This document shows, in pieces, positions 38,422 through 61,288 of a stretch of 64,000 bases of DNA (position 1 is its first letter; each line of letters starts with the position of its first letter). The position numbers and the translations under genes are program-made. The notes below the pieces were generated by a model that was given only the letters and a program-made list of their open reading frames with translations, had not been told where the DNA came from and ran no database searches. Source of the stretch: an uncultured Candidatus Peribacteria bacterium (GTDB lineage Bacteria > Patescibacteriota > Gracilibacteria > UBA4473); the NCBI GenBank assembly GCA_964578905.1, contig CAZOER010000002.1:4840-68839 (forward strand), in the 5' to 3' direction.

Positions 38422-38428
38422 GTACTTC

Positions 38429-41060: not shown

Positions 41061-41094
41061 CGTCTATTTTATATGCTTTAAGCCTTTTAAACCC

Positions 41095-41123
41095 TTGATT
41101 TTTCCTTTTATTCATGGTACAAT
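41095..41123 (+). promoter_or_regulatory. Promoter of locus gene C: TTGATT-17-TACAAT with extended -10 TG
   Basis: AAACCCTTGATTTTTCCTTTTATTCATGGTACAATTA is a near-duplicate of the 37859-37895 module. Confidence 0.65.
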
Positions 41124-41143
41124 TAGGAGATTGATAAACATTT

Positions 41144-43333: not shown

Positions 43334-43414
43334 GCCTTAAGAGAAGAGAAAAAACAGAAAGGTTGTAATAAAACAATTTGACATTTTAGGCTAGGAAAAC
43401 TATGATGCTCAGAC

Positions 43415-43443
43415 TAGCTTTAGTGCCTTATTTATGGTATAAT
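43415..43443 (+). promoter_or_regulatory. Promoter of locus gene D: weak -35 TAGCTT, extended -10 TGGTATAAT, 11 nt from the ATG
   Basis: TTTATGGTATAATT at 43431-43444; ATG at 43455. Confidence 0.55.
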
Positions 43444-43454
43444 TCTCTGATTAA

Positions 43455-46400
43455 ATGAAGTTTTTACATAACCAATTGCGAGACTTTGAAAACCGTTGGG
43501 AAAACGGACTCGTTTTTGTGGAAGGTGATGATGTAGAAGGAGCTCCCAATGCAGAAGATACGGAGGAAGAAGAAAAGAAAACAAAACTGGAGGAGTCTCG
43601 TCTTCAACGAGTCTTGAAAGGAAGATTTTTGCACCTATCAGTAAATGATCTGGATAAGGTTGCAAAGGATGTTGAGAAATTAGATGACAACAGTAAAAGT
43701 AAAAAAATATTTGAAAAGAAATTTAGAGAGCTAACAGAATATTACATAACGCTTGTAACAACAGATCCAGACAAACTCCCACCGCGGATTTTGTCACGTA
43801 TTTATCAAACTCCAAAATTGAGATCGTTCCTTACTGCAAAAATGAAAGAAACGTTGCAGAAACTTGCGGGGAGCCATCTTCGTACACTTGAAGAAATTGT
43901 ATCAAGAAAAACGTCAACGTGGACCGGAGAAGAAGGCGTTCGTGTTTGTACTTTGTATCAATCTCTTAAGAAAGAAAAAAGTAAAAGTACAGTTCAAGCA
44001 AAGCTTTTTGAAGAGACGAAAGAAAAACTGAAGCAAAAAAGAAAACAGGTTCTTGATAAATTCAAAGTAGAGACTGTTGAGGGAAAGGTGAAGAGTGTTG
44101 TCGAGAAGGGGACGTCAGGACATCCACCAACAAAAGAAGAAAAACTGTTTTTATTGGAAACGGCAAAATTGTTTCCTGATAAAAATGAGTGGCCAGCAGA
44201 TGAAAAAGAATGGAATCACTGGACTGAGATAAAAGATACAACGCTTAAAAATCTCCTTGAAGACATTATCCTTGCTGATAAATCACAAGAGAAGGTAACA
44301 CCAGGGAACTATCTTTTGTGGGAAGTGCTTCAGGAAGTTGATTTTTCAACAACAGAAAATAAAAAGATTCTCAGAAGTTTAAAACTCAAACAATCGGATG
44401 TTAAAAAAGCGATTGGGAGACTCTCTACTCGATGGAATGCGGTTCAGTTTATTGCATTTATAAAAGCACAAAATGTACTGACCCCAGAACATTTGAAAGT
44501 CTTACAAGAAATCTTGGATGATGCTGATGGCTTCTTTGAAACAGGAGGAGTTCGTGCTTACCCTGCAATGTCTCTCAAGGATCACGAGAAACTAGTAGCC
44601 GCTATAAAAGAACGAGTGAGTCTTGAAGAAAAGAGAAAACGGATCGAAGAACAAAGTTGTGAGGATGTGCGAGAGAAAGAAAGCGCAGATCCATCACTGA
44701 CGAAGAAACAAAAAACGTACAAAGAGAATGATGAAAAAGAAAAAGAAACAAAGACGGGTGTTCAAGCACTCTTAACAGAAGATCGTTTAACGGAATTACT
44801 TTCACAAATAGAAACAAAGGCCGCAGCAATTCAGACGAAGCTTGATGAAGCACAAACAGAACTTGCAGAAGATAATCTAAAGAAAGAGCGAAAGGAAAAG
44901 CTTGAAAATAACATTCAGCAATTCGAAGCAGAACTCTTTGTATTAAAGGGGGAAGGAGAAAAAAAAGGAATAGATAGCGAAATTACAGAGTTTATTGAGT
45001 ATATAAAACGAGAGGATAAAGAAGAGAAATACGTAGAAGTCTCTGCAGAAAAATTAAAATGGATATTCAGAAAATTTGATAGAGTTGGAAGAAGTGTTAC
45101 TCAAAAAATTTCTTTTATTGATGAGTGGCAAAAAGCCTATGAAGGATTTGAAATAGCGAAAAAAGATCTTGAAGGAAGTCGAAAGGCTTTGCTTGATGAA
45201 ACGAAAATAACAGAAAGTACGAATAGTGAGATTGAAGCACTTGAGAAAAAAGAAGAACAACTCCGACAAAAACAGGCTGAACTAATGAAAGAAACATCAG
45301 TTGAGGAGAGTTTAAATAACATCTACCGAGATCCAATTGGAGAAGGAAAAGAAATTCAAGAGGAATATTATAAGAAACTAGAGAAGAGAGTGAAGGATCA
45401 CACGCTTACAGCGGCAGATTTAGATGTAATGTGGTCAGAAAGTGGAAAATACAAAACAGGGAAATTTAAGAAATACGAAGAATTTAGAAAAACATTTAGT
45501 GACAAAATAAAAACTTATCTCGGTGATCCGCTAACACTGGAAGGGGATAATGTGGAATCATGGATAGCGAATTTAAATGAGAAATTATCCGATGTAGAAT
45601 TGTTGAAATACTTCAAGGAGGATCTTGATGTTTTTAAATCAGCAGATTCTTTTGGAGAAGGACTTCTTGATACGTCAGTTCTTCTACAAGGTGCAAAAAT
45701 GCACTTTAGAAAAAAGATTAGAAAACATATTGAAGATGCGATTGAGAATCTTCGAGGAGAAGCGGCTCGAGAAGAATTTTCAAAATATTGGGATGGAATA
45801 GCAAAAAAAGCTGAAAGCAATAAAGACATGGTTGAACGTTCTGCTCAACAGCAAGCTCACATTAATAGACAGAAAGAAATTAGTCGAAACGCTGAAACAG
45901 AAAAAGGGAAAATTGACGATACTCTGAGCGATGAAGACGTCAAAAGACTTAATACAGCTGCTGGAGAAAGAGAAAGAAAAGCTATTGAAAAAGCTCATGA
46001 AGTCGAAGTAGAAAGATATCGAAGAGGGGAACTTGTTGATTATCCAACAGGAAGAAAAGTTATTGATGCAAATGGGGATGAAGTTGATGAAGTGGAAAAA
46101 ATCTACATTCCTGGACAAGATGACCTCAATCAACTGGCTGCGAAAACACAGGAAAGTACCAAGGAAATCGAAAAGACTTCAATTGGTATAGCTCGAGAAC
46201 TCGAAGCACTTGGAGAGGGTTTTAGTAAATGGGATGCGAGTACGGAAGAAGAACGAGAACATCTGCATTTTTCAGAAGAAGGACTTCAGGAAAAACTAAA
46301 AGGACTCTTGGGTCAGTGGAAAGGATCAAGAAAGCAATTACGAGAGGGTATTGATACTCAAAAGGAAACCTGTTTACAACACGGTGAACTTCCTCCTCAA

Positions 46401-48929
46401 AGAGACAATTTTAATACAAACTTTGTAGAAAAATATTACAAAAACGTAGATACTGTTTTTCACAGAGCTGATCGATTTTTCTCTGAACTGACTGCAGAAG
46501 TCGAATCAGAAGGTGGGTTTGCGAGAGATAAAGATTATTTCTCAATGATTTCGCTTGAATTACGGTCATTATATGGATTGTGTGATTTAAAAGGAGGGGT
46601 GTTATCAAGAGAAACAGACCGACAAAAGAAAAACTTCAAGGCACAAGCCAAAGTAATAACAAGACTGAAGGAAGAAGGACTCTGGGAAAAAGAAGATTTG
46701 GATGAAAATCTTGAGAGTTTTAAAAATAAATTTCGAACACTTCGAGGTGAATATCATGAAAAATTCGCACGATATACAAGGAATGTAAATTCTATTAGTC
46801 GTGTTATTGAGGGAGATATTCGGGGCATGAAAGACAAGGAGTTCATGGAACGATATAAAATTGATAAAGAAGCGGCACAAAAAATAGTACAAGGACATCA
46901 GGCACAAAAAGAAAACTTCGATGATCTTTGGAATGAAATGATAGGAGGAGGGGATAAAAAAGATTTCTTTAATCAAGATAACCCTGATTTCGAATCAGAT
47001 TGGACTGCACAATACAAAGAAGCCGTTCTCAATGAAGATGGAGAACTTATGAATACAGCGCTTGGGCGATTTAAGGACATTGAAGCTATTACGAGCAATG
47101 TTGATAATGCTGAAATAGGTTCAGAAAAATTAGTCGATTGGTTAAAGAATTACAATGAAACGAAGGGGCGAGAAAAAGGTGTCTTCGGTCGATTTAGATT
47201 TCATGCAGAGGAATTCTCTCTCTATGATTTGTATCGAACGATTAAAGAATCACTTGATGCTGCAGAAAAACACTGGAAACGAAATTCTGATAAACATGTA
47301 GCGAACCTGGGAACAACCTTCTGGGGAGATGATAACCGATGGGGACGAGAGTTTGCTCGTATGGCAGAAGAATCAGAAAGTGCTCGATTTAAAGAATTTG
47401 AAACACAGTATCACGATCAACCAGGATGGGTGATCCTGAAAGCGATGCGAAAATCAAAGAATCCAGATATGGTTCGAGGATGTATTAATCTTTTGTCTGA
47501 AAAAGGATTCTTGCGTTGGGACGATCCAATTTTATGGGAAGTGCTTAATCGTTTATCACGAAACACATATTTCAACATTCCAGGGGACAACGACCTAACA
47601 CCGCATGAAAAATTAGAACGAGTAAAACTTGCGTGTGAAACTATCTGGACACCAGAGGTGTTCCGTCAATGGGAAACTGGTCTTGAAGGAAATCTCAAGA
47701 AAGCCAAAGAACAATATGATGGAGAGTTTGCAAAATATGAAAACGATAGTAACGCTCGTACGGATATTATGGCAGGAATGCTTCAACGGTGGAGTCAAGG
47801 AGAGGTTGACGATGTTGACCCAGCTCGATATGAACATTTCCTTTTTGCATCATTCCGTGATGGAAAGATGAATGGACAACCCGATCAACGATGGTACTTC
47901 CTTCTTATGGGAGTGGCCACACGAAATCCTCGAACGGGACAAGCTTTGATTTCAGAAGATGTGTTGATGCGAGTAAATAAAGAATTTTTGCAGAGATTCC
48001 CATTTGTTGACTTTTTGGCGGACAAAGAATCTCCAAAATTGAATGGACGAATTGTTCCGGAAGGAACACCAGGAGCCCGTGGAGGAGGTGGGGAACGAGC
48101 ACTTTGGTGTGAGGAAGACTATAAAAATTGGGCACGAATGCTCGGAACGGGAGATGGAACATTTAATCCCAAAAGTCCACCAGCAAGTGGAAAAACAGAA
48201 GCGTTCTTCTATCAAGTTATTAATGAATCGCTCACCTGTAAGCAACGTGTTCAACGTATGGGACGATTTGCGCAAGCACCCGATCATGATGATGGAGTGA
48301 ACTATCAATTTGTATGGGACCAGAACCGTGTTATGGAGAACTTGAATCTTGAATCAACAGGACGAGGTCAGTTTTCAGAGGACTTCTGGAGAAGTTGGTT
48401 GTCAGGGTTTGATAAATTTATTCGAAATAAAAAAGCGATGATTACCCATGGAGACATGGTCTGGGGAGGGCAAGATTTCTGGGATAAAGATCGAAAACGA
48501 CACCTTCTTGAGATTGGAAAGAGTCTCAAAGTAGCGCTTACGGTAACGCAAACATTGCAAGGAAATAAGAGTACTCAACGAGGACCGACGACCTTTGATC
48601 AAGACGAATGGGAGAAAAAAAGTGATTATTCGATTAATGGAGAAGAGAGTAGAAATAATGTTAATGATCTGTTCCGATATATGATGCAGGAAGAGGGAAC
48701 TGATGAATACGAAGAAATTCTTGATGCGAAGCTTCGAGATGAATTCGGAAAAGATGAAAAACAACGACAAGGGCATGAACGATGGAGAGACGTGAATAGT
48801 AAAGTAACGAATTTATTGGATTCTGATGGTGGTGATACCTACTTTAGAAACGAAGACTTGATTGAAAACGCGCTTAATACCTACTGTACAAGTTCCGCAA
48901 GTAGATGTTCAGTGGATTGTATTTTGTAA
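43455..48929 (+). CDS. 1824-aa Lys/Glu-rich coiled-coil protein without signal peptide or TM segment (locus gene D)
   Basis: Uninterrupted ORF. The N-terminal part (more than 1100 aa) is dominated by charged heptad-like sequence. The C-terminal part (about 600 aa) is more globular, with Trp/Cys/Gly-containing stretches. No family recognised. Confidence 0.85.
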   Translation: MKFLHNQLRDFENRWENGLVFVEGDDVEGAPNAEDTEEEEKKTKLEESRLQRVLKGRFLHLSVNDLDKVAKDVEKLDDNSKSKKIFEKKFRELTEYYITLVTTDPDKLPPRILSRIYQTPKLRSFLTAKMKETLQKLAGSHLRTLEEIVSRKTSTWTGEEGVRVCTLYQSLKKEKSKSTVQAKLFEETKEKLKQKRKQVLDKFKVETVEGKVKSVVEKGTSGHPPTKEEKLFLLETAKLFPDKNEWPADEKEWNHWTEIKDTTLKNLLEDIILADKSQEKVTPGNYLLWEVLQEVDFSTTENKKILRSLKLKQSDVKKAIGRLSTRWNAVQFIAFIKAQNVLTPEHLKVLQEILDDADGFFETGGVRAYPAMSLKDHEKLVAAIKERVSLEEKRKRIEEQSCEDVREKESADPSLTKKQKTYKENDEKEKETKTGVQALLTEDRLTELLSQIETKAAAIQTKLDEAQTELAEDNLKKERKEKLENNIQQFEAELFVLKGEGEKKGIDSEITEFIEYIKREDKEEKYVEVSAEKLKWIFRKFDRVGRSVTQKISFIDEWQKAYEGFEIAKKDLEGSRKALLDETKITESTNSEIEALEKKEEQLRQKQAELMKETSVEESLNNIYRDPIGEGKEIQEEYYKKLEKRVKDHTLTAADLDVMWSESGKYKTGKFKKYEEFRKTFSDKIKTYLGDPLTLEGDNVESWIANLNEKLSDVELLKYFKEDLDVFKSADSFGEGLLDTSVLLQGAKMHFRKKIRKHIEDAIENLRGEAAREEFSKYWDGIAKKAESNKDMVERSAQQQAHINRQKEISRNAETEKGKIDDTLSDEDVKRLNTAAGERERKAIEKAHEVEVERYRRGELVDYPTGRKVIDANGDEVDEVEKIYIPGQDDLNQLAAKTQESTKEIEKTSIGIARELEALGEGFSKWDASTEEEREHLHFSEEGLQEKLKGLLGQWKGSRKQLREGIDTQKETCLQHGELPPQRDNFNTNFVEKYYKNVDTVFHRADRFFSELTAEVESEGGFARDKDYFSMISLELRSLYGLCDLKGGVLSRETDRQKKNFKAQAKVITRLKEEGLWEKEDLDENLESFKNKFRTLRGEYHEKFARYTRNVNSISRVIEGDIRGMKDKEFMERYKIDKEAAQKIVQGHQAQKENFDDLWNEMIGGGDKKDFFNQDNPDFESDWTAQYKEAVLNEDGELMNTALGRFKDIEAITSNVDNAEIGSEKLVDWLKNYNETKGREKGVFGRFRFHAEEFSLYDLYRTIKESLDAAEKHWKRNSDKHVANLGTTFWGDDNRWGREFARMAEESESARFKEFETQYHDQPGWVILKAMRKSKNPDMVRGCINLLSEKGFLRWDDPILWEVLNRLSRNTYFNIPGDNDLTPHEKLERVKLACETIWTPEVFRQWETGLEGNLKKAKEQYDGEFAKYENDSNARTDIMAGMLQRWSQGEVDDVDPARYEHFLFASFRDGKMNGQPDQRWYFLLMGVATRNPRTGQALISEDVLMRVNKEFLQRFPFVDFLADKESPKLNGRIVPEGTPGARGGGGERALWCEEDYKNWARMLGTGDGTFNPKSPPASGKTEAFFYQVINESLTCKQRVQRMGRFAQAPDHDDGVNYQFVWDQNRVMENLNLESTGRGQFSEDFWRSWLSGFDKFIRNKKAMITHGDMVWGGQDFWDKDRKRHLLEIGKSLKVALTVTQTLQGNKSTQRGPTTFDQDEWEKKSDYSINGEESRNNVNDLFRYMMQEEGTDEYEEILDAKLRDEFGKDEKQRQGHERWRDVNSKVTNLLDSDGGDTYFRNEDLIENALNTYCTSSASRCSVDCIL

Positions 48930-48998
48930 TTTTTGACGAAACTTGATTGCAAGTTTATTTCTTTACTATTTTCTCTTGAAAAAGAAAGGGGATTTTTC

Positions 48999-49027
48999 TT
49001 GAATTCCTTGCCTTAAATCTGCACAAT
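48999..49027 (+). promoter_or_regulatory. Putative promoter of locus gene E: TTGAAT-17-CACAAT
   Basis: Hexamers at 48999-49004 and 49022-49027, about 30 nt upstream of the ATG at 49058. Confidence 0.45.
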
Positions 49028-49057
49028 AAGGCGGAAAACAAAACCCCATTTTTCCCC

Positions 49058-52000
49058 ATGTTTTTCTTTGTAAAAACAAAAATAAAAACACAGAAAATTT
49101 TTCACGTATCTTGTGGAAGTTTTTTATGTTGGAAAAAGCGCTTAGCAGTGCTTCTTATTGGAACTTTGTTGATGCCGAGTTTCGCGTCTCCAGCGCATGC
49201 ACTTTTTGGGTATTGGGAATCTTCCCTAACGGTTCCAGATGTGGGAAGGGAGAAATTAGTATCGATATTAGTCGAAGAAAGTTTGCTCGAGAACATTAAA
49301 TTGAAAAACAAAATTGAGAACTATGCAGCAAGTGTTCAATCAAATATAAACGGAGAGGTGGTTCTGGTTCCCGTTCCCACAGAAGCTTCACCACTCGATA
49401 TTTATGAAGGAAATGCGCACTTGTACTTTTCAGGAAATGATTCAGATGGACGCTCTCAATTAGTGGGAACAATCTTTATTGGAGATGTCCCATTGCCTGT
49501 TGTCGAGAAGAGTGGAAATCTCTGGCCAACGATTTTTCCGTACGTGGACTTCGAAGATCCTGTTTACCAGTGGGATTATGAGAAAGAACGATTTGTGTTT
49601 CGTGGAGGAGGGAGTCATCAGGCTGAAGTATGGCATGGGGTGATTCGTTCCGATCCTCGTCACGATGAAGGATGGGATGCGAAGAAATTAAAAGATTTTC
49701 GAGAAAAAGAACTGATCACATTCTTTCAAACAAATGAGCAGGTAAATAGTGGAAGTATTACGTATGACAAGAATATTTTCTCAGCGGATCTTGTTACAGA
49801 CCAAGCAAACGGATTGGATGCAACGGCAATGGGACACTATGAAAATTGGGTGAACAACATCGAAGATATTGTGTACATGCGGTACACCAAGCACTGGGCA
49901 GCGGAAGTAATGGGGAACATTGAGGCAGACGATATTATCGATACGACTGTTTTTCCTGATAGTATGAAACCTCCGACAGAATCTGAGGATGCGGGTACTT
50001 TGATGGGGAACGTTCCTGATATTCACACAAAATTGATTATTGAAAAGGGAGTAAAGCGATATATTGAGACATGGAAAGAAAAACTTTCAATTGATAATGC
50101 AGAGATCGAAAAAACAGGACGTTGGGATCCTGCTGACATAGAAAGCACGATTGTGCTTATTTCTGAAAAAGATGAGCGAGCGGCGGTAAATCTCAAAGCA
50201 TTTAATGACATTCTTGATGCGACATTAAACACAGCCATTGTGGCGGAGAATGTACCAAAGGACATCAAAGTGAAAACAACAGAGAATGTTCCAATTTCTT
50301 ATGTTATTCCACAGATTCCTCCATTGGAGGATATCGCAATGACGCAGGACCGAGACAAAGATATGTATTGGAATGGAGTGTCTCGCGCGACGATGGCTAT
50401 CGAAGATTGTTCGATTCTGAGGGGGAGTCTAAGAACAGATCAGTATCCACATGCGCAAATGGTGGAAGCCAATCGGGCATACAACCCAGGAACATCTGAT
50501 GAAGATTATCCAACAGAAGCCGCGCCCGATTATCTTTGTGAAAATATACGAATTCCAGTGACATCAAATCCTAATTGGGGAGCGTATCATGCGTGGTGGG
50601 ACGAAGATTCTGATGACGATGGGACGCTGAATTATATTGATCTCGGAGAAGATTTATATGAATCCTGTTGCGCACTTAATTCAGAGTTCCTTCAAGATTC
50701 GTTTGAATATGTAAATGATTATTGTGAAATAGGATCGGAGTGGGTGATTCGTGATTACAAGGGATTAGGGGATCAAACTCCATATGCACCAGAAGCGACC
50801 GATGCTCCAACATTAACCAATCAATATCGGGATCATGTCGGGACAACAGAACCAGTTTTTGATATTACCGCAACAAAAGAAAGTCTTACGGGAACGCCTG
50901 GGGCGGAAGGATGTTCGACAATCTTGGATGTCGATGGAGACCATTCTATGGACTCTCTCGTATATCATATCGAACCGCAAAACAGCACCATATTGGCTCA
51001 GATGGAAGACATGGGAAGTATTGCCATGCCAGTCGATAAACCACGAGGGTTTTCTTTTTATGACGAGCAATGGGATTTTCATCGTATTAATTATTTCAAT
51101 GCATTTAGCCTCATTGGACGACACAGTGAGGTAACAGACGAAGCGGCTCGAAGAGAACTTCTAAAGCAAGAAATTCTTAATGGACTTCAGGATAAAATAG
51201 AGGAACTGAACGATATTATTCGAAATAATGCAACAGAGAATATCGATCTGATTGATACAACACTGTTTGATATACACACAGGAGATTTGGACGATATCGT
51301 GGATTCCATTATTTGGATTGATAAAACAATCGAATCAAAAAACAGACTTATGTTTGAGATCGCATTCTCTCCAGCAAAAGACGCCCAAGAGTTTCTTTTT
51401 AATGATGATTTTCACGATGGGTATGAGTTCGCTCAGATTACAGCTGAGAAAGCCGTATCGGGAAGTACAGGAGAAGAGGGGATTAGTATGGGATTTGAAC
51501 AGGGATCCGCTCCTGACAGTGAGCAATTTCAAGATGCAAAACTCGAAGCATCAGAATTCTCTTTCGATGATGGAGCCGATACAGAAGATATTCACAAACA
51601 AGACGAAGAGCATTTTGATTTTAGTGGACAAGAGTCCAGTCAGTCTGCTTGTAAGGGAAAAAATATCCTGAGCTGGTTTCCGTGTTTTATTAATTGGTTA
51701 TCAGAATTGCCGAACATTATTACGCAGAACTTTACGGTTCTCCCAGATCCACCAAAAAATGGAAACGAGGATTCAGATGAACCAGCAAAGCCAACCGTAC
51801 TGCCACCTTCAGGCGGAGGCGATAGTGCCAGTTCTTCTAGTTTTCAAAATACCGTAAGCCAGATAAAGACTTCTGTTCCCGAAATTCATATTGGAGCAGG
51901 AAACACCGATCCAGTTATCCTTGAAGCCGATTTAAAAAACAAAGCCGGAGGAGCCGTGCAATCGAGCTCAAGTGCAGAAGTGTCCATAAAGTTTAGTAAT

Positions 52001-55000
52001 TCTAATGGAGAAAAATTCTTTGATGTTTTCCCGAGCAAAAGTGTAGAACCTGTTGCAGGAAAAGCGGTGTTCACCCTCTTTCCAGAAGACACCGACGTTG
52101 GGGGATCGTTTGATATTAGTATGGAAGTTGATGGAGCGGTGCTTCAAAAAATACCCGTCACGGTTTCAAAATATTCATTAACCGCAGTGGCGGAAAAAAA
52201 CTACGTGGTGGTCGATAATAAAGAAGGCGTTTTAATTGAAGCAAAGGTTGAAGATCCCGATGGTATGGTTTCTTCAGAAAAAGACGGGAGTATTTTGGTC
52301 TTTGAATCAGACTGGGGAACATTTGAACAGAACGGACACGCATCTGTTCGTAATGGACGAGCAGAGATTGTTTTCTTCCCAGGGATTAGATCAGGAGAAG
52401 CGACCATTCGTGTTCAAGATTCAAAAAAGAACCTTCCACCTGCAGAAGAATCTGTAAATATTATTGCGGGAGAAATTCAGTCTATTGAGATCGAAACAAA
52501 GACAGAAACCCTTATTGCGGGGGCTGATTTCCTGCCGGTTGTAGCACAACTTCAGGATAAATTTGGAAATGATATTACGAGAGGATCAGGAGAATTTATA
52601 TGGGAAACAACGAATTTGGAAATACAAGGAATTGAAAAAGCGAAGAAGTTTAAAACTACGATTGAAAATGGAAAAAAGAAACTCCTCATCCGACCCAAAC
52701 ACAAACTGCCAGCGGCGGAATTGCGAGTGAAAGTAAAACTTCCTTTCGAAGAAGTCGTGCAAGTGAAAATTTTTACTATTCCACAAAAGGTCGTCTTCAG
52801 TATCGAAACATCTGAAGAAAGTGTTACGGCAGGGTCAGCAAATCCAATCAGAGTGCTCGTTATGGCAGAAACAGAAGAAGGCGAACGTATTGAACAAAAT
52901 CTGTCAGTAAACGTATTGGGGGAACCTGCGGGAATGGGACAGTTCCTCAATACGATTGAAATGGAAGATGGACTCGGTGAATTCAAATTTTATGCCGGCA
53001 CAAAAGCAGGGGAGACAAGCCTCTCGTTTTCAAGTCCTGGATTTGAAACAAGTGAAGAAGTTTTCACAATAAATCCTGATACGGCGGTGAAGATACTGAC
53101 TTCAATTGATACAGAAACAATGGATGTCGACGATCCTCACGCAGAGATAAATCTTGATATCAGTGTTGTTGATAGGTTTGGAAATGTGGATACAACCTTT
53201 GTAGATAAGGTGCATTTGTTACCAAATGAACCAGACCTTTTCCTTTCAACGAATAGGGAGACACTGATTGATTTGGACATGATTGATACCTCTGGAGGAA
53301 TTCAATATGTTATAGATGAAGAAGCAGATGCATCAAGAGCCTCCGGAACTTCGCCAGACACAAGTCTTCTTCAGACAACAGATGGATGGTCCGTTCCAAT
53401 GAAAAAAGGAAAGGCAACGGTTGAAATGACCCCCGGATCTACAAGTACGGGGAAAGTTCTTATGAGTATCGAGTCAGCGGGGCTTGTTCCAGATACCGTT
53501 GAGTTTGTCGTGACAGATTATCTAACCGCAGATGAAATTGATGACCTGACGCCAAAGTCTCGCTTCACACTCCTTACGGGATTTGATGGAGGAGATATGC
53601 TCGCGGGGAAGGGAATTGGAAATCGATTCCTGCTTTCTGGAAAATCTCAAGCGGTGGGAACTTTGATTGCGCCTCCAAATCCAAAGAAGCGACTCGGATA
53701 CATTTCTCCGGCAGGGGACGTATCGCTTCAGCTCAAAGCAGAAGTACGCATGAATGAGTACTTTACCGTAGAAATAAAAGACAGTGTTCGACCGATTGCC
53801 CAACTTCATGTGCGATTTGAAGAAGAACCTGAGTTCTTTGTGAAACGAGAAAAGGGAACCTCTCCTGGAATTTACTTCCTTCCAACAGAAGGACTCGTGG
53901 AATCGCTTGTACGAGAAGGGGATACGATTCTCTGGGATGATGCCCCAGTGTTCACCATTACCCCACAAGGTGGTCTCCAGATCGTTCAAGGGGGATATGA
54001 GTTTATTTCAGAAGGATCATTTCTAGAGTGGAACGTTGAAAAAGAAGACCAACCAATCGGAACACTTGCGATTGTTCCCACCGAAGAAACATTTACTCTT
54101 TTTGATACCCAGGACCGAATTCCAACTGAAGCTGAAGGAATTTTTGTGCATCAAGAAGTTTCGGATATTCATATAAAAGAAAGCTTCACAGGAAAGACAA
54201 CAAATGACGAGAGAGGACTGGTCTTTGTTGATTCGAATAAAGAAGAATCCTCAAACAAGAAACTCGGGGCACCGTATTTATCTGCAGAGAATGTGCAGGA
54301 GGATAAAGAAATTGTGTGGACGAATTCATGGAAACCAGCTTCTCGGTATGCTGCGGGAAACATTGTTGGAGAATCTGTGCAATGGAATTCAAGTGATGCG
54401 TTTATATTGCTTGGAGATCCGACGACGAGTGTTGCATCAGAAAATGATCGTTCCACGCTCGGGATTACCGAAGATGTTGGAAAACCTATTTGGAAGAGTC
54501 CATTAGGAACAATCGAACAAATTATCGTCGCAGATATTAATGCCGATGATGTGCCAGACATTCTTAACCGAGTAGGGAAGAGGCTTTTTGCGCTCTATCA
54601 AGAAAACAGTGAGATCGATAATTTCCGGGACACCGGACCGATTCTCCGTTTTGAAGATGGTGTACAAAAGGTGTTTGCCGTTGATAACGATCACGATAAC
54701 TTTAGTGACATTATCCAATTAAACGATGAAGGAATTCTTATTTTACATAGAAATACAAACGGAACCTTTGCTCGAGCAGGTGTCATTATTAATGGATTCG
54801 ATGGCGTTATTAATGAAATCTTTGAAGGGAATATTGATGATGATGAATATAAAAACGATCTTGTATTCTCTGATGCAGAAAAAACACTTTGGTTTGCGCC
54901 AGGGACAGCCGATGTAGGTGTGTATGGTCCTGCGACAGCCATTGAGAGATTTGCTCCAAGTCTGGAAGCAACGGAAGAAGTTTATATTGCTTCAGCAGAA

Positions 55001-58000
55001 CAGGACTGGGAAAAGCGAAAGTATTTCGATACCGATAAATTTCCAAATCTTGAGAGAGTCTTCGTTTCGTATGAAGGGGTAAAGGATGATATCACCGATC
55101 AAACTCCAGAAGATGCTATTCGTATTGAGGGAAGTGATGACTTGCTTCCAGAAAATGCCTTTGAGAGAGGTATTGGAGAAGGGGGAATGCACTTTAATTT
55201 TGGAAGCGTTCCAGTGTCAGAAGAAACACTTGAGGGCATGACATCGTCACTACAAGGAACGATGGATGAACAATTGGCACAGATGGCCGAACAAGTGCTT
55301 GGAGACTCGGGCGGAGCTTTCAAAAAAACATTCCTAGAGATACCATTTCAAATGCGAGTAAATGGAACCTGGACACTGCTACCTGAGGGAAGTTCTCAAT
55401 TACAACTTGGCCAGGCGGTTCATGCTGGATTTGAATTCACGCCAATTACAGATCTCGAGTCTTTTGAATTTCTCCTTCCAAAGATGAATGGGATGACATT
55501 TGAAAAAGAGTCTTTTTCTTGTGAAGAATGTGATGGGGAAGTTCAGTTTAGAGAAGACATTCCTGATGACGTGGAGGTCTGGGGATACTGGGAACAACCA
55601 CTGGAAAGTGGTGAGAAAATAGAACTCACATGGGATCTGACAGTAGAAGACATGGGACCACTTTCTTTTCAAGTTCTTGATTACAAGAGTAATGACACGA
55701 TTGATGATATCTTGATTGGATGGGAAGAAGACGGAGAGAAAAAAATTATTAAATACCAGTCGCATCCTCAGAACAATAATAATACTGCCTTTAAGCACTC
55801 TCAGGATATTGTGGATGTGACAATGCCATCCGACCCAGATGCACCTTCACAAGACGCATTAAAGGATAAATATACACAAGATGATGATGCGAATGGACTC
55901 CCTGATATTTGGGAAACCTTTGGGACCCTAGCTTTAACAAGCGTAGCAGGCGCAATGACTTGTAGAGGAAACTGTGGACTGCCGATTCCATCGATTGTCA
56001 TTCCACCATTTGCTCCCGGAAGTCAGACGCTTTATGTACCACCGTTTGCGATTAAACTTCCGAAATGGCCAATGCCGTTGCCGATGTTTTCATTATTGAT
56101 GAATCCATCAGGAGTACCGACGCCTGTCTTTTATACCCCCAAAGGGGGAGAGGTAATTGCGTCAGGACTGATCTCTTTGTTTCGAATATATCTTATTCCA
56201 ACAACGAATGCCTCACTTGGGATTAGTTTTTGTCCGTTTCCTTATAACGTAGGAGATAAGACGCAGTTCCCAATCGGAAACTGTTTCACAATCGTTATCC
56301 CATCAATCTTTGGGGGGGCCTTCTGTAGTTCTGATGATAGCGAAGCAGGTGATACAGAAGATTCAATTCGGAATATGATGCAGGATTACAATCCTGCAGA
56401 CTACAAACCAAAGTTTGAATTCAATAAACCAAATAAAACAATTCACACAGCCGAAGTGATAAGTGATTGGATTCGTCGACAAAAAGCAGAATGGAATAAT
56501 ATTAAACTTCCAACGCCGAAACTCTCAAAACCAAAATTACCAAAGACACTTGTTCGAGAAAAAGTGAAAACAGTAGAACCATTGTTTGCGGAAAACACGA
56601 AGGTTCTTGGGCGAAAACTATGGAAAGACATTGATCAAAAATCATGGGTGACGCTCAAGCCGGAACTCCATACGTTTCCATACCCAGTCTTTCCCAAGAC
56701 TGATGAAAACGGTGATAACGCAGAATTAGAAAAATACCATATCCAATGGCAAGCTTGGAAAAAGGCTCCAAAGAAATACCAAGAAGATAAGAAAAAACTG
56801 AAAGCCTTTTATAACGAAAATTGTAAGGGAGAAAAAGCGCAGACAAAAGAGTGTGAAAAATTATCGAAAAATATTGTTTCATTTGATGCATTTATTGGTT
56901 CTGTCTCACAGAACGAACAAGCGATTGCGAAGAACTGGGAAGCGATTGAATCCTACAAAGAAGTGCCGAAAGTCCTCAGCGAACTCTTTAAAGACGAAGA
57001 GGGAGAAGAAGGAGATATGACAAGACTTGGAAAGCAGTTCAAAAAATACGGCGATGAAATTGAAATCTATACGAAGGAGTGGCTTGATGCGAATAGAAAA
57101 GCGATCGCCAAATGGAAGAAATTTATTAAAGAACTCAAAGAGTTCTTTAAATCGATTGAAATGATATTTGAAATCTTTGGAGAATTCAAAAATGATTGTC
57201 CGACATGTTCTATAGAACGAGGATCAAGTACAACAGTTTTAATTAACCTCTTATTGGGAGCCCTCAAAATACCGGTTATTCCAGCGCCGCGATTGCCGGA
57301 TATTCTTCTTGATTTCTCACGTATTGATTTCACGGTTCAATTACCCGTTCCAGAAATAGAACTTCAACCGGTCGAGCTCGCATATCCTGATTTGCCACCA
57401 CCACCAACGATTAGAGTGAGTATGGGCTTTGATGTTCCTGCGTTACCCGTGATCCCCGTCTTGCCAAAGATGCCAGAGATCAAGATCAATGTTTCAATTC
57501 CAGAACTTACGATCCCTGTTCTTCCAGTGCTTCTCGATCCTCCAGGGATTCCAAATCCAATTGTGAAATTGAAAGCGATTGTGAAAATATTTAACATATT
57601 CTTAAAATTATTCTGTTTGATTGTGAGAAACTTCATTCCCGTTCCAGAACATTATTTGGCGGGACATGTTCAGCAAGTTACAAACAGAACACGGATGATC
57701 GGTCTTGATTTCACGCTCCCTTCGCTTTCTCTGAATTTACCACAGCTTCCAGAAATTGAAGATATTGAAATTGCTCTTGAAGCCCATCTTTCTTTACCAA
57801 CCGTGGCGCTTGAAGTTCTGAATGCAACGGTAGGGGTTTTCGCAGAACTTGATCAGTGCGTGGTTGATTCATTGAGTAAGGTATTAAAAGGAGCCCCAGA
57901 GGGAGCAATCTGTGAAGCAGGAGGAGGTGGGGGCGTTGCCTTTGAACCAAAAACACTTGTCGAGAATAAAGTGAAATATAATATTGTTGCCAATGTGGAA

Positions 58001-60370
58001 CCGAGTTATTTTGAAAAAACGCATACACCACAACCAACATTTGCAGAGGCCTTTACAAAAGCATTCGCTTCATCTGATCGAATTCTAAAAATGGCATTCA
58101 CATCAAAGAGAAATGTGTTCTCATCAATTGCACCAAAGCGAATGGCACGTTGGTTAACTTCAGTTGTTGATGTGGGATCTATTCCAACAGAGGCGCCTTC
58201 CGACTTTGATGTAACCGCTTTTCAAGAAAAACAAAACAATTCATTTCAACGACCGCCTACTGTTTATTACTTTGATCCGGTTACCGAAACCGCAGAAAGC
58301 ATTACGAGTTTCCCAGGGGAGCAAATAACGGCGCACACGTTTGCCGATATAGGGAAAGATTACAATGATGAGATCTTGTATGCGATTGATGATGAGCTCT
58401 ATTTGAAATATCGAATAGTACCGACCAGCGACGCTGACGATCTCGAAAAGAAGTACGAACAGAAGCACGGAGGGGATTATGAAGATCGATTTGGGAAATT
58501 CACCAAATGGGACTTCGAGACATTTCGAGAGAAATTCGCTCCGGCGAAAGAAGTTCTCGATTCAGTAGAAACAACGGGAACGACATTTGAATTCAAACAA
58601 ATATTTAATGGAACATCGTACTTCGAATGGGTTGTGAGCGACCGTCCTGATTTTGTTTTTGAAATGGCAGAAGACTCGTCTGATAGAATGTCTCAACAAT
58701 GGGAACGGAACGCATTCTTGGTTCGTCCGCAAGAAACGAAATACGAGATTCGACCGATGACGAGTAAAATTAAAGATATAAAAGGATCGCCAATTTTATA
58801 CGCATCTCCTTCAGAAAAGATCCAACGGTTTAAACAAAAAGATTGTGATGATGGTGCAATAGAAAAGCCATTCTTCGCAACAGAATCTCTTTTGGTGGGA
58901 ATTGATAAATACTCTCGATTTGAAATTCAAGTACCACCGCTTCCAGGAATGCCTGAACAAATTGAAGAGAAAGTCCTTCGAAAAGGGGAGGAAACCATCG
59001 TTGAATACGGGGCTGTTTGTCTCACGCGAGGAGATGTAGAACGTGTTGCCATGACCGAAATTCAACGTGTTCATCCGAGAGAAAACACATATCTCCCTTC
59101 TGGTTCACGAATGGAATTGGGCAATAATGACCGAGTAAAATTGGAATACTTTGATGGAACGAAGGTGACCGTTTATGAAAATGAAAAATACACACTGCGT
59201 ATTTTTGAGACAGAAGACGAACTTATTCGAGCCTTTGAGTCGTTGCAAAAAAAGAATCAATATGGAGCGTTCCAAGGGTTCACGAAGACTGGTGAGAGTT
59301 TCTTCTTTACAAAGTATCTTCACGACCCACAGGGAGCATCTGACACTACTCCGCCAGAGATTTATATTGCTGGAGGAACAAATATTTCTGCGAAAGTATT
59401 TACGCCTGTTTCCGTTGATGCTTCTCGATCACGAGACACCGATAGTGGGATTGGAAACGTGTGGTGGGATCTTTATCCAGGATATGATACGGACAAAGAT
59501 GGAGACACCACAAATGATAAAGATTTCCCGACAGACGAAACCGTGACTCCACGTGAGGTGCTCAAGGTGTCACTTCCTTTGTATGAATCTGAGGGGACCG
59601 CATCTGTCATTTTGCATGTTGAGGACGAAGAAGGAAACCACTCACAAGAAACACTCACAATTACCGTCACGGCATCTCAACCACAAATTGAGGAAGCGAC
59701 GATGAGAGGGAGAAGTATTTTGGGGAGTGTCCGCGATAGTGTGGAAGGAATTCCAATTTTCGTTGAACGAAATCGAAGGGGACAATGGGAACCCATTCGT
59801 CAGGAATCAATTCCAACTGATCGAGGTGGGGATTTTTCTATGATAAGTATGGGGACATCCGGCGGTATTGAAATAGAAGATTTTGCAAACAAAGAGGCCT
59901 TTGAAATTTTGGAAAATGGGCGTCCAATTCTTCTCAATGACATGTTTGATATCATTGTGCGAAGGGCGACAGCGAGCCGTCCGACGAGTATCTTTCTGCG
60001 AGATGAACAGGAAACGACCATAACTTCGATTGCCTTTGAAATTCCAGGGAAAGAAAATGTTGTGCTCGATGAAGACGAACTCTCATTCACATCAGAATCA
60101 TCTGTGCACGTTCTCGATAGAAATACGAAAGACACTATCCTCTTTGAAAAAACAAAAGAGGGGAATGTTCTCATTTCTTCTCAATCAGCTCCATTGGCAT
60201 TGATTGATAAAAGAGGGGATTTCTATGGTTCTCTCGATCTTCAATTAAAGCGAGCAAAGAATGAAAACGATCCGGTTGTATTTGAAATCCTTGGTCTCAA
60301 AGATACGGTTGTGGGTGAGTTTGTAATTCTTCTCGGAGAGGATTCAAACATGCATGTAACGCGACAATAA
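49058..60370 (+). CDS. 3770-aa giant surface/membrane protein with Ig-like array, FG-GAP/VCBS-like repeats, two hydrophobic Pro-rich blocks and a PKD-like domain (locus gene E)
   Basis: Uninterrupted 11.3-kb ORF with N-terminal signal-like KKRLAVLLIGTLLMPSFASPAHA. Big_1-like units span about nt 51850-53520. DINADDVPDIL / VDNDHDNFSDII repeats lie at about 54500-54920. Hydrophobic blocks lie at about 55920-56340 and 57225-57900. A PKD-like segment (VDASRSRDTDSGIGNVWWDL) lies at about 59350-59670. Confidence 0.9.
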   Translation: MFFFVKTKIKTQKIFHVSCGSFLCWKKRLAVLLIGTLLMPSFASPAHALFGYWESSLTVPDVGREKLVSILVEESLLENIKLKNKIENYAASVQSNINGEVVLVPVPTEASPLDIYEGNAHLYFSGNDSDGRSQLVGTIFIGDVPLPVVEKSGNLWPTIFPYVDFEDPVYQWDYEKERFVFRGGGSHQAEVWHGVIRSDPRHDEGWDAKKLKDFREKELITFFQTNEQVNSGSITYDKNIFSADLVTDQANGLDATAMGHYENWVNNIEDIVYMRYTKHWAAEVMGNIEADDIIDTTVFPDSMKPPTESEDAGTLMGNVPDIHTKLIIEKGVKRYIETWKEKLSIDNAEIEKTGRWDPADIESTIVLISEKDERAAVNLKAFNDILDATLNTAIVAENVPKDIKVKTTENVPISYVIPQIPPLEDIAMTQDRDKDMYWNGVSRATMAIEDCSILRGSLRTDQYPHAQMVEANRAYNPGTSDEDYPTEAAPDYLCENIRIPVTSNPNWGAYHAWWDEDSDDDGTLNYIDLGEDLYESCCALNSEFLQDSFEYVNDYCEIGSEWVIRDYKGLGDQTPYAPEATDAPTLTNQYRDHVGTTEPVFDITATKESLTGTPGAEGCSTILDVDGDHSMDSLVYHIEPQNSTILAQMEDMGSIAMPVDKPRGFSFYDEQWDFHRINYFNAFSLIGRHSEVTDEAARRELLKQEILNGLQDKIEELNDIIRNNATENIDLIDTTLFDIHTGDLDDIVDSIIWIDKTIESKNRLMFEIAFSPAKDAQEFLFNDDFHDGYEFAQITAEKAVSGSTGEEGISMGFEQGSAPDSEQFQDAKLEASEFSFDDGADTEDIHKQDEEHFDFSGQESSQSACKGKNILSWFPCFINWLSELPNIITQNFTVLPDPPKNGNEDSDEPAKPTVLPPSGGGDSASSSSFQNTVSQIKTSVPEIHIGAGNTDPVILEADLKNKAGGAVQSSSSAEVSIKFSNSNGEKFFDVFPSKSVEPVAGKAVFTLFPEDTDVGGSFDISMEVDGAVLQKIPVTVSKYSLTAVAEKNYVVVDNKEGVLIEAKVEDPDGMVSSEKDGSILVFESDWGTFEQNGHASVRNGRAEIVFFPGIRSGEATIRVQDSKKNLPPAEESVNIIAGEIQSIEIETKTETLIAGADFLPVVAQLQDKFGNDITRGSGEFIWETTNLEIQGIEKAKKFKTTIENGKKKLLIRPKHKLPAAELRVKVKLPFEEVVQVKIFTIPQKVVFSIETSEESVTAGSANPIRVLVMAETEEGERIEQNLSVNVLGEPAGMGQFLNTIEMEDGLGEFKFYAGTKAGETSLSFSSPGFETSEEVFTINPDTAVKILTSIDTETMDVDDPHAEINLDISVVDRFGNVDTTFVDKVHLLPNEPDLFLSTNRETLIDLDMIDTSGGIQYVIDEEADASRASGTSPDTSLLQTTDGWSVPMKKGKATVEMTPGSTSTGKVLMSIESAGLVPDTVEFVVTDYLTADEIDDLTPKSRFTLLTGFDGGDMLAGKGIGNRFLLSGKSQAVGTLIAPPNPKKRLGYISPAGDVSLQLKAEVRMNEYFTVEIKDSVRPIAQLHVRFEEEPEFFVKREKGTSPGIYFLPTEGLVESLVREGDTILWDDAPVFTITPQGGLQIVQGGYEFISEGSFLEWNVEKEDQPIGTLAIVPTEETFTLFDTQDRIPTEAEGIFVHQEVSDIHIKESFTGKTTNDERGLVFVDSNKEESSNKKLGAPYLSAENVQEDKEIVWTNSWKPASRYAAGNIVGESVQWNSSDAFILLGDPTTSVASENDRSTLGITEDVGKPIWKSPLGTIEQIIVADINADDVPDILNRVGKRLFALYQENSEIDNFRDTGPILRFEDGVQKVFAVDNDHDNFSDIIQLNDEGILILHRNTNGTFARAGVIINGFDGVINEIFEGNIDDDEYKNDLVFSDAEKTLWFAPGTADVGVYGPATAIERFAPSLEATEEVYIASAEQDWEKRKYFDTDKFPNLERVFVSYEGVKDDITDQTPEDAIRIEGSDDLLPENAFERGIGEGGMHFNFGSVPVSEETLEGMTSSLQGTMDEQLAQMAEQVLGDSGGAFKKTFLEIPFQMRVNGTWTLLPEGSSQLQLGQAVHAGFEFTPITDLESFEFLLPKMNGMTFEKESFSCEECDGEVQFREDIPDDVEVWGYWEQPLESGEKIELTWDLTVEDMGPLSFQVLDYKSNDTIDDILIGWEEDGEKKIIKYQSHPQNNNNTAFKHSQDIVDVTMPSDPDAPSQDALKDKYTQDDDANGLPDIWETFGTLALTSVAGAMTCRGNCGLPIPSIVIPPFAPGSQTLYVPPFAIKLPKWPMPLPMFSLLMNPSGVPTPVFYTPKGGEVIASGLISLFRIYLIPTTNASLGISFCPFPYNVGDKTQFPIGNCFTIVIPSIFGGAFCSSDDSEAGDTEDSIRNMMQDYNPADYKPKFEFNKPNKTIHTAEVISDWIRRQKAEWNNIKLPTPKLSKPKLPKTLVREKVKTVEPLFAENTKVLGRKLWKDIDQKSWVTLKPELHTFPYPVFPKTDENGDNAELEKYHIQWQAWKKAPKKYQEDKKKLKAFYNENCKGEKAQTKECEKLSKNIVSFDAFIGSVSQNEQAIAKNWEAIESYKEVPKVLSELFKDEEGEEGDMTRLGKQFKKYGDEIEIYTKEWLDANRKAIAKWKKFIKELKEFFKSIEMIFEIFGEFKNDCPTCSIERGSSTTVLINLLLGALKIPVIPAPRLPDILLDFSRIDFTVQLPVPEIELQPVELAYPDLPPPPTIRVSMGFDVPALPVIPVLPKMPEIKINVSIPELTIPVLPVLLDPPGIPNPIVKLKAIVKIFNIFLKLFCLIVRNFIPVPEHYLAGHVQQVTNRTRMIGLDFTLPSLSLNLPQLPEIEDIEIALEAHLSLPTVALEVLNATVGVFAELDQCVVDSLSKVLKGAPEGAICEAGGGGGVAFEPKTLVENKVKYNIVANVEPSYFEKTHTPQPTFAEAFTKAFASSDRILKMAFTSKRNVFSSIAPKRMARWLTSVVDVGSIPTEAPSDFDVTAFQEKQNNSFQRPPTVYYFDPVTETAESITSFPGEQITAHTFADIGKDYNDEILYAIDDELYLKYRIVPTSDADDLEKKYEQKHGGDYEDRFGKFTKWDFETFREKFAPAKEVLDSVETTGTTFEFKQIFNGTSYFEWVVSDRPDFVFEMAEDSSDRMSQQWERNAFLVRPQETKYEIRPMTSKIKDIKGSPILYASPSEKIQRFKQKDCDDGAIEKPFFATESLLVGIDKYSRFEIQVPPLPGMPEQIEEKVLRKGEETIVEYGAVCLTRGDVERVAMTEIQRVHPRENTYLPSGSRMELGNNDRVKLEYFDGTKVTVYENEKYTLRIFETEDELIRAFESLQKKNQYGAFQGFTKTGESFFFTKYLHDPQGASDTTPPEIYIAGGTNISAKVFTPVSVDASRSRDTDSGIGNVWWDLYPGYDTDKDGDTTNDKDFPTDETVTPREVLKVSLPLYESEGTASVILHVEDEEGNHSQETLTITVTASQPQIEEATMRGRSILGSVRDSVEGIPIFVERNRRGQWEPIRQESIPTDRGGDFSMISMGTSGGIEIEDFANKEAFEILENGRPILLNDMFDIIVRRATASRPTSIFLRDEQETTITSIAFEIPGKENVVLDEDELSFTSESSVHVLDRNTKDTILFEKTKEGNVLISSQSAPLALIDKRGDFYGSLDLQLKRAKNENDPVVFEILGLKDTVVGEFVILLGEDSNMHVTRQ

Positions 60371-60427: not shown

Positions 60428-61288
60428 ATGAAAATTAGAAAAGCAATTCTTCCCGTAGCTGGACTCGGTGTCCGCTTTCTCCCCGCGACGAAAGCACAGC
60501 CGAAGGAGATGTTGCCTATTTTTGATACTCCATCGATTCAGTTCATTGTAGAGGAAGCTGTGAAGGCAGGGATCGAAGAATTCATTGTCGTGATTGGAGG
60601 AAGTAAGCATTCAATCGAAGATCATTTTGCGCCTAATAAAGAACTCGAACTTATTCTTGCGCAACGCGGAAAAATTGCTGAACTCGAAGCGGTTCGCAAT
60701 ATCTCTAAGATGGCACATTTCTCTTATGTTCGACAAGAAGAGCCACTCGGAGATGGGCACGCTATCCTCTGTGCAGATGATTTTATTGATAAAGGAGAAA
60801 GTGTGGTCGTGCTATTCGGAGATGACATTGTTGATAACGAAGGAGGGAAGAATGCCGTTCAGCAGATTCTCGACGTATACAAAGAAACGAAAGCTCCCGT
60901 CGTGCTTCTTGAAAAAATCGATAAATCACAATCCGGTAAATACGGAATTGTTGAGCTCGATAATAATAAAATCACAAGCCTTGTTGAAAAACCAAGTCCT
61001 AAAGATGCGCGGTCAGACCTCGGAGTTGTTGGAAAATTCATCCTCACCCCACCACTTCTCAAAACGCTCAGAACGACCATGCCAGACAAGGGAGGGGAGA
61101 TGCGGTTGTCCAATGCTATTCGAGATTATATTGTCCAAGGAGGGGATGTGAGAGGGCAAATTTTAGAGGGAAAGCGATTTGATACGGGAGACAAGATTGG
61201 ATTCTTGAAGGCGACCATGCATTACGCGCTCAAGAAGGAGAATGGATTGGTAAAGAAAGCTTTGCAAGAGTTCTTGGAGGCAGAGTAG
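60428..61288 (+). CDS. galU: UTP--glucose-1-phosphate uridylyltransferase
   Basis: KAILPVAGLGVRFLPATKAQPKEMLPI...EPLGDGHAI...VEKP is the GalU signature. Confidence 0.9.
   Translation: MKIRKAILPVAGLGVRFLPATKAQPKEMLPIFDTPSIQFIVEEAVKAGIEEFIVVIGGSKHSIEDHFAPNKELELILAQRGKIAELEAVRNISKMAHFSYVRQEEPLGDGHAILCADDFIDKGESVVVLFGDDIVDNEGGKNAVQQILDVYKETKAPVVLLEKIDKSQSGKYGIVELDNNKITSLVEKPSPKDARSDLGVVGKFILTPPLLKTLRTTMPDKGGEMRLSNAIRDYIVQGGDVRGQILEGKRFDTGDKIGFLKATMHYALKKENGLVKKALQEFLEAE

Follow-up and report, generated by a model that had tools for sequence, protein, structure and literature searches.

The locus examined here raises the question of what a very long bacterial gene encodes when adhesin-like regions flank two strongly hydrophobic blocks and, in particular, whether those blocks cross a membrane. 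The window analysed is a 64,000-nucleotide stretch from an uncultured Candidatus Peribacteria bacterium (Patescibacteriota; Gracilibacteria; UBA4473; GenBank assembly GCA_964578905.1, contig CAZOER010000002.1, positions 4,840 to 68,839 of the forward strand), and it contains an open reading frame (ORF) that runs on the + strand, in a single frame from ATG to stop, from 49058 to 60370 and encodes a protein of 3770 residues. An earlier note on this sequence had described the product as an adhesin-like protein with two membrane-like blocks on either side of a lysine-rich segment, had taken this arrangement to imply an out-in-out topology, with a non-membrane beta-rich module as the alternative, and had recommended domain annotation, structure prediction and comparison with related giant ORFs. 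Our analysis favors, at a probability of roughly 60%, a giant and wholly extracellular surface protein whose N-terminal head would be displayed for binding to a partner cell, whose hydrophobic blocks would be folded domains and whose retention and function would depend on a cluster of genes encoded immediately upstream.

The ORF list and its translation define a complete giant-protein gene at 49058..60370, and the same 3770-residue product, identical throughout, was recovered from 12 independently assembled contigs (ENA, Logan, JGI and NCBI), different samples included. A first homologue search returned 86 homologues, all of them between 2300 and 6400 residues long and 26 of the 86 near full-length. 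Two relatives at 55% identity span 99% of the query length, and about 25 further giants are collinear with it. Comparison with the homologue L008 (78% amino-acid identity, 1305 codons) yielded a nonsynonymous divergence (dN) of 0.14 against a synonymous divergence (dS) of about 1.2, for a dN/dS ratio of about 0.12. An open frame of 3770 codons, conservation over the full length and this difference between dN and dS are together far beyond chance and indicate that the giant gene is real and under purifying selection.

Mapping of conserved blocks onto the query, as recommended, showed many of the related giant ORFs to be collinear and located the pieces conserved across the whole family at residues ~65-480, ~1750-1950, ~2300-2430, ~2670-2910 and ~3350-3700. 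Closer homologues are collinear across the N-terminus, the FG-GAP zone, block 1, block 2 and the C-terminus, and the order of block 1, a linker of 200-520 residues and block 2 is kept in 42 of 42 relatives examined. A profile of this block module, searched against 1.84 billion cluster representatives, matched 569 representatives at E ≤ 1e-3 and 344 at E ≤ 1e-30. The matches are nearly always single and full-length and typically lie 55-70% along proteins of 3.5-6 thousand residues, the module-bearing members of the family measuring 3.4-6.4 thousand residues. On this sequence evidence, block 1, the helices and block 2 constitute one conserved module that defines a large family, in which block 2 and the N-terminal domain are the two most widely conserved pieces. 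The titles of the related loci, which come from species-representative genomes, name Candidatus Peribacteria, Candidatus Gracilibacteria or the Patescibacteria group, and UGA-recoded lineages are present among the relatives. In one family member (L007, 10001-22654) we identified 100 in-frame TGA codons and one terminal TAG. When aligned with standard-code relatives, these TGA codons coincide with a conserved glycine at 13 of 27 informative columns and with tryptophan at 4, which indicates genetic code 25; the database protein for this gene (P0069) was translated with UGA as tryptophan and thus carries about 100 wrong tryptophans.

Within the module, block 1 (residues 2288-2428; 55919..56341; all features of the giant gene lie on the + strand) was delimited by composition, alignments and AlphaFold2 as an essentially uncharged block, rich in proline, glycine and aromatic residues, with about seven modelled beta strands. 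The helical linker follows at residues ~2445-2713 (56390..57196; AlphaFold2 and composition), and block 2 at residues 2714-2948 (57197..57901), as defined by the coverage map, alignment, AlphaFold2, hydropathy and the profile search. In bins of 100 residues, block 1 contains 18% proline, 35% ILVFM and about 5% charged residues (residues 2301-2400), the linker 17-20% lysine (2501-2700) and block 2 14-16% proline and 40-46% ILVFM (2701-2900). The hydrophobic Pro/Cys-rich character that the earlier note had ascribed to block 1, the hydrophobic composition of block 2 and the Lys-rich nature of the segment between them are thereby confirmed. Conserved cysteines occupy positions 2302, 2306, 2392, 2409 and 2423 in block 1 and positions 2714, 2717 and 2853 in block 2, the last of these within a charge-bearing helix (residues 2834-2859). 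Eight conserved cysteines suit extracellular, disulfide-stabilized domains, and disulfides probably form in the blocks.

Structure prediction was run with AlphaFold2 on residues 2274-2964, using an alignment of 17 sequences, and gave a model with a mean predicted local distance difference test (pLDDT) score of 63.5. Block 1 was modelled as seven beta strands and the linker as long helices at residues 2555-2588, 2597-2633 and 2653-2713 (pLDDT 80-89), in line with the helical segment described earlier. For block 2 the model begins with a short helix and a beta hairpin, continues as an extended Pro-rich stretch and ends in additional helices, which the alignment shows to be charge-bearing; along the sequence it comprises a CPTC motif, the beta hairpin, an extended stretch rich in [LIV]PxxP, the helix at 2834-2859 and the motifs PVPE(W) and QxTNR. 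Neither Pfam nor NCBIfam matched the block module, and Foldseek searches with its moderate-confidence model returned best E-values of 0.15 in the PDB, for generic long helices, and 0.12 in BFVD. The whole protein and the full-length family profile likewise gave nothing significant against PDB sequences.

On the Wimley-White octanol scale, each block has 19-residue windows that score -4 to -9.6 kcal/mol, compared with -9 to -15 for the clear transmembrane (TM) helices of the neighboring gene product g729, so that "membrane-like" is a fair description of their composition. Across the 86 homologues, TM-grade stretches, defined as a Kyte-Doolittle value (19-residue window) of at least 1.9 with at most one charge, are N-terminal, with only four sporadic internal cases. 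A TM-like filter applied to 43 aligned relatives was passed by one relative at block 1, by none at the start of block 2 and by one at the block 2 helix. In the same 43 relatives, the best Wimley-White windows of block 1 have medians of -6.6 for the score, 0 for charged residues and 4 for prolines. Most of the hydrophobic windows carry 3-6 prolines. At the block 2 helix (residues 2834-2862), strong hydrophobicity is limited to the query and the two sequences nearest to it; across the family the median at this site is -2.3 kcal/mol, and the segment contains lysines and, in many cases, a proline inside it. The modelled strands and the failed TM filter support the beta-rich, non-membrane alternative of the earlier note, at least for block 1.

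The N-terminus reads WKKR, then LAVLLIGTLLMPSF, then ASPAHA/LF, and its sequence and hydropathy correspond to a Sec-type signal peptide at residues 1-49 (49058..49204), with a basic n-region, a hydrophobic core at residues 29-42 and a cleavage-like site, ASPAHA/LF, that was assigned by eye. This bears out the signal-like N-terminus noted earlier; many homologues also begin with a TM-grade hydrophobic stretch. A prepilin-type N-terminus (G/FTLIE) was not found in the query. Behind the signal peptide, the coverage map, the alignment and AlphaFold2 define a conserved alpha/beta and helical domain at residues ~65-480 (49250..50497), with the motifs LIGDVPLPVV, PYVDF and PEIWHGVI and with invariant residues in the family alignment that include D164, W192, H193, R275, D321 and D372. 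The AlphaFold2 model of the N-terminal 886 residues has a mean pLDDT of 74, mostly above 85 over residues ~65-480, and places an alpha/beta domain ahead of helices. In the PDB, the best Foldseek match to this model had an E-value of 0.085, and only generic flavodoxin-like folds were retrieved; Pfam gave no match to the domain in the whole protein or in 500-residue pieces. The invariant residues of the head could form a binding or catalytic site. A gingipain/caspase-like (C25) head, suggested by the LIGD...P and WHG motifs, was considered but is not supported, since there was no Pfam match at E ≤ 10, the top 50 Foldseek matches included no peptidase and all had E ≥ 0.085, and the domain, in which His193 is invariant, holds no invariant cysteine that could complete a His-Cys catalytic dyad.

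The head is followed at residues ~481-930 (50498..51847; phmmer segments) by a Cys-containing acidic and helical region that is conserved mainly in the closer subfamily and for which AlphaFold2 gave mixed results, with high confidence at model residues 560-750 and low confidence elsewhere. This region includes a hydrophobic stretch outside both blocks, ILSWFPCFINWLSELPNII (residues 870-888; 51665-51721), which reaches -9.3 on the Wimley-White scale and sits in a mostly low-confidence part of the N-terminal model.

Domain scans were performed with Pfam and NCBIfam on the whole protein and with Pfam on 500-residue pieces. The whole protein had no match at E ≤ 0.1 in either database, and the pieces yielded only FG-GAP_3 (residues 1814-1836) and PKD_4 (residues 3433-3537), both below threshold, so that annotation of the query itself produced nothing at threshold. 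The Big_1-like array that the earlier note had placed at about residues 930-1490 was not matched by Big_1, whether in the whole protein or in the pieces, and self-BLAST detected no internal repeats. The Ig-like part of that label fared better through relatives, which have matches to Glyco_hydro2_C5 and Invasin_D3, whereas Big_1 stays under its cut-off in them. At least some of these Ig-like matches are located within or next to segments alignable to the query at ~930-1490; on these Pfam matches, this variable region (51845..53527) probably consists of beta-sandwich domains. The FG-GAP-like repeat zone at residues ~1750-1955 (54305..54922) is conserved family-wide on the coverage map. FG-GAP_3 is sub-threshold in the query (E 0.013; 16.5 bits, where the cut-off is 26.9) and scores 25.8, 27.2 and 36 bits in relatives, within stretches that align with this zone, which lends support to the FG-GAP/VCBS-like repeats described earlier. 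Because the matches in relatives partly align with the query at ~930-1950, the Ig-like and FG-GAP labels for this region are plausible by homology.

The C-terminal region (residues 2990-3770; 58025..60367), mapped with phmmer, contains a weak PKD-like stretch at residues 3433-3537 (59354-59668; PKD_4 E 0.01, 16.3 bits against a cut-off of 27). The full-length family profile retrieved a collagenase PKD domain from the PDB at E 0.3. The PKD-like domain of the earlier note is thus a weak resemblance, sub-threshold in the query and without support through relatives. In both SLH-bearing relatives scanned, SLH lies near the C-terminus (P0043, 4150-4192 of 4491; P0030, 3863-3909 of 4189), and in P0030 it is located just past the stretch matching the C-terminal region of the query. 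SLH was not detected by Pfam in the query, whole or in pieces, and is absent from the precomputed Pfam lists of its close subfamily. No LP.TG motif occurs anywhere in the protein, which ends in ...GEDSNMHVTRQ. Polysaccharide pyruvyl transferase-type enzymes make the cell-wall polymer bound by SLH domains, and a gene of this type lies in the window at 23691-24530, though no SLH was detected in the giant protein.

Immediately upstream of the giant gene, on the same strand, translation and synteny identify four genes. These encode g172, a small protein with two TM segments (37903-38421); g778, a helical protein with hydrophobic segments (38429-40765); g729, a polytopic membrane protein with about 6-8 hydrophobic helices, a Cys-containing loop and a charged C-terminal tail (41144..43333); and g1824, a charged, predicted helical protein of 1824 residues without a signal peptide (43455..48929). 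Genomes of the Peribacteria type show a matching series of sizes upstream of the giant gene, of about 175, about 770, 700-870 (g729) and 1400-1900 (g1824) residues. By tblastn, the giant gene has a homologue of g1824 as its immediate upstream neighbor in 11 fetched loci (9 distinct contigs), 8 of which also carry a homologue of g729. For g172 and g778, the gene order matches and the sizes are similar in L003 and L004, with sequence matches for g172 in L003 and L023 and for g778 in L010 and L011. The g1824 homologue search returned at least 3 matches, low-complexity words having filled its candidate list. None of the four proteins has a Pfam, NCBIfam or PDB match, nor does any of the 64 members of the g729 family have a domain match; g729 proteins carry nearly invariant cysteines in a loop between hydrophobic segments. 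The synteny of g1824 and g729 with the giant gene suggests one functional unit. An 11/12 promoter-like site lies at 43378-43406, upstream of g1824, and no terminator-like site was found between g1824 and the giant gene, a weak indication given that the promoter and terminator scans returned counts at chance level.

Several candidate identities for the cluster proteins were examined and set aside. That g1824 might be a paralogue of the giant protein was rejected on comparison of the two, and the JGI name "SbcCD ATPase subunit" for g1824 (P0280), which has no domain or PDB support, is probably a coiled-coil artefact. Topology and an NCBI name had pointed to VirB6/TrbL for g729, an assignment without Pfam, NCBIfam or PDB profile support; the name in question, "type IV secretion system protein", is attached to a g729 homologue (P0244) on the L013 contig and lacks profile support as well. 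A type IV secretion system would be expected to include VirB4- or VirD4-type ATPases, and no ATPase-family domain of any type was detected in the cluster genes.

Two paralogous NTP_transferase (sugar-nucleotidyltransferase) genes, at 36903-37841 and 60428-61288, flank the five-gene cluster, and in L003 the corresponding cluster likewise has a gene of this family ahead of it. Over 34000-50000, an interval that covers the cluster and the start of the giant gene, GC skew stays strongly positive throughout (0.19-0.28), and all large genes in that interval lie on the + strand. The rest of the window is ordinary chromosome, encoding GyrB, YceG, SecA, DnaE, a PilT-like ATPase, glycosyltransferases and a type IV pilin. 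The pilin gene (18552-19130; MKKRNFG/FTLIELLVV) and the PilT-like T2SSE ATPase gene (31317-32492) are unlinked to the giant gene, at distances of about 30 kb and 17 kb, respectively. In two distant SLH-bearing relatives (L005 and L006), the gene immediately before the giant gene encodes a canonical type IV pilin (GFTLIELLIV); PilB (T2SSE) and PilC (T2SSF) are also encoded upstream in L005, and downstream each of the two loci has four genes for signal-peptide proteins, with similar sizes in both (about 200, 220, 570 and 380 residues). These pilin-linked loci (L005, 6525-9848 and 21283-25256; L006, 5162-5689 and 26048-30459) hint that the family is linked to type IV pili in some lineages.

Taken as a whole, the proposed reading is that the giant protein would be exported by the Sec route to the cell surface of Ca. 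Peribacteria (Peregrinibacteria; candidate phyla radiation (CPR)/Patescibacteria). The domain order of the family would be a signal peptide, an alpha/beta head, variable Ig-like beta-sandwiches, FG-GAP-like repeats, a three-part module (a Cys/Pro-rich hydrophobic beta domain, long helices and a Pro-rich hydrophobic domain) and a C-terminal region, which in some distant relatives is followed by an SLH cell-wall anchor. Because SLH lies near the C-terminus in those distant relatives, the C-terminal end would be expected near the cell wall and the head would be held away from the cell, in a position where it may engage a partner (host) cell or a surface. Blocks 1 and 2 would both fold as extracellular domains, probably stabilized by disulfides, and would not be TM segments. 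In Peribacteria, which have no SLH anchor, retention and function would probably proceed via g729, g172, g778 and the cytoplasmic 1824-residue protein.

A number of observations weigh against this reading. By the Wimley-White measure the hydrophobicity of the blocks is genuine (-4 to -9.6 kcal/mol), the window at residues 2844-2862 scoring -9.6 in the query and, in the two sequences nearest to it, -8.6 and -10.1, and membrane association of the blocks retains a small probability. The mid-region model is of only moderate confidence (mean pLDDT 63.5), the giant protein itself contains no adhesion domain at the Pfam threshold, and its subfamily has no recognizable anchor (no SLH, LPXTG or C-terminal TM segment). 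Finally, the operon partnership is putative, being read from synteny.

An alternative to which we assign a low probability is that of a surface fiber in which the block 1-helices-block 2 module is latent and membrane-active, inserting into or bridging the host membrane. Such a module might work as a fusogen, form a pore or translocon, or serve as a lipid conduit, with Pro/aromatic-rich hydrophobic surfaces that stay buried until host contact. It would fit the hydrophobicity and chargelessness of block 1 across the family (median window -6.6, 0 charges) and the hydrophobic-helices-hydrophobic order kept in 569 representatives, as well as the presence in the clade of predatory epibionts that consume host cytoplasm (PMC8080830) and the reported lack of fatty-acid synthesis in Peribacteria (PMC4736985), and the syntenic g729 and g1824, the one a polytopic membrane protein and the other huge and cytoplasmic, point to a machine that spans the envelope. 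These points are, however, of composition and context, the conserved cysteines and modelled beta strands equally fit an ordinary folded domain, and searches of the PDB and BFVD with the moderate-confidence model revealed no fold likeness to any fusogen, to any pore-former or to any lipid-transfer protein. The more specific proposal that the module is a new contact-triggered membrane-active device with which epibiotic or predatory members of the Peribacteria/Gracilibacteria/Absconditabacteria clade would breach or bridge host membranes, and that in Peribacteria it forms an envelope-spanning host-interaction machine with g729 and g1824, is slightly more speculative still.

It is similarly doubtful that the blocks serve to hold the protein on the producer cell, in place of the SLH anchor that distant relatives have, whether through peripheral or re-entrant insertion into the cell's own membrane or through binding to extracellular loops of g729. 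In favor are the lack of SLH, LPXTG and a C-terminal TM segment in this subfamily, the synteny of g729 and its nearly invariant loop cysteines, and the window at 2844-2862, which in the query and the sequences nearest to it matches the weaker g729 helices in hydrophobicity. That strong hydrophobicity is, however, confined to the three closest sequences, and relatives that carry SLH but no g729 cluster conserve the module just as well, so that it cannot be merely a substitute anchor.

The out-in-out topology, in which blocks 1 and 2 span the membrane and the Lys-rich linker is cytoplasmic, is not supported and is highly improbable. It draws on the membrane-like hydropathy of the blocks and on the linker of the query, which has 18% lysine and a net charge of +10 and would fit the positive-inside rule. 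The lysine-richness and positive charge are, however, peculiar to this lineage; across the family the linker has median values of 8.2% lysine and -8, with charges ranging from -44 to +13, so that a conserved cytoplasmic loop under that rule is not indicated. The topology is further opposed by the 3-6 prolines present in most of the hydrophobic windows, by the beta strands modelled for block 1, by the conserved cysteines in both blocks, by the 0-1 of 43 relatives that pass the TM-like filter at any of the three candidate sites and by the 86 homologues without conserved internal TM-grade stretches. An artefact, either an assembly chimera, which the earlier note had left as an escape route, or a non-functional fused ORF, has unusual length and mixed composition as its sole grounds and is practically excluded because the identical ORF recurs on 12 contigs across assemblies and samples, relatives at 55% identity over 99% of its length and about 25 more are collinear with it, and dN/dS is about 0.12.

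Giant repeat adhesins with Ig-like and FG-GAP/VCBS domains include the Big_1 arrays of invasin and intimin and proteins of the BapA/SiiE/LapA type. Like them, the query is exported, acidic and several thousand residues long, and its relatives score for Invasin_D3, Glyco_hydro2_C5 and FG-GAP_3. Unlike them, it has no detectable tandem repeats and no Pfam family at threshold, no RTX/type I secretion system, autotransporter or LPXTG features were found in it, and much of its conserved sequence lies in modules without known relatives (the head, the block module and C-terminal parts). With respect to SLH-anchored S-layer-associated proteins, SLH occurs in distant family members, whereas none was detected in the query or its close subfamily. 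The statement of the earlier note that this is not a described adhesin architecture agrees with the lack of any family, PDB-sequence or fold match for the head or the block module.

Giant surface proteins have been reported from related lineages. Ca. Peribacter riflensis encodes very large proteins (1,219-3,861 residues), several of them predicted to be extracellular, which lack a functional prediction, for which a role in attachment has been proposed and in which strain variation is concentrated (Anantharaman et al. 2016, PMC4736985). These proteins come from the same bacterial class as the query, and the 3,861-residue protein is a candidate orthologue; that report presents them as a class of genes, and the domain order, the block module, the spread of the family and the upstream cluster are not described there. 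In the sister CPR lineage Absconditabacteria, Vampirococcus lugosii encodes giant membrane-associated or surface proteins of 1392-4163 residues with PKD, integrin, DUF11 and fibronectin-type domains, which have been proposed to function in host recognition and attachment (Moreira et al. 2021, PMC8080830). The family described here does reach UGA-recoded lineages. Membrane localization in Vampirococcus was inferred from TMHMM (PMC8080830), whereas the internal hydrophobic blocks described here are not conserved TM helices. A survey of huge proteins counts Peregrinibacteria as one of the enriched phyla and reports that none of the huge proteins of this group received a COG assignment (PMC11573180). 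Our literature search found no account of the fixed architecture, the block module, the breadth or the conserved gene cluster of this family.

Members of this CPR clade are presumed to live attached to other cells, as has been established for some of them, which raises the question of how they hold a host and extract resources from it. The family described here is a very large and conserved set of giant exported proteins that lie outside all domain databases and have a fixed architecture and, in Peribacteria, fixed neighbors, which makes it a concrete candidate for a core host-contact structure of the clade. The analysis also indicates that simple hydropathy may mislabel the Pro-rich hydrophobic blocks of giant surface proteins as TM segments and so distort inventories of the "membrane proteome". 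The N-terminal head, the hydrophobic block module and the g729/g1824 pair provide defined modules with which the role of these proteins in host contact can be tested.

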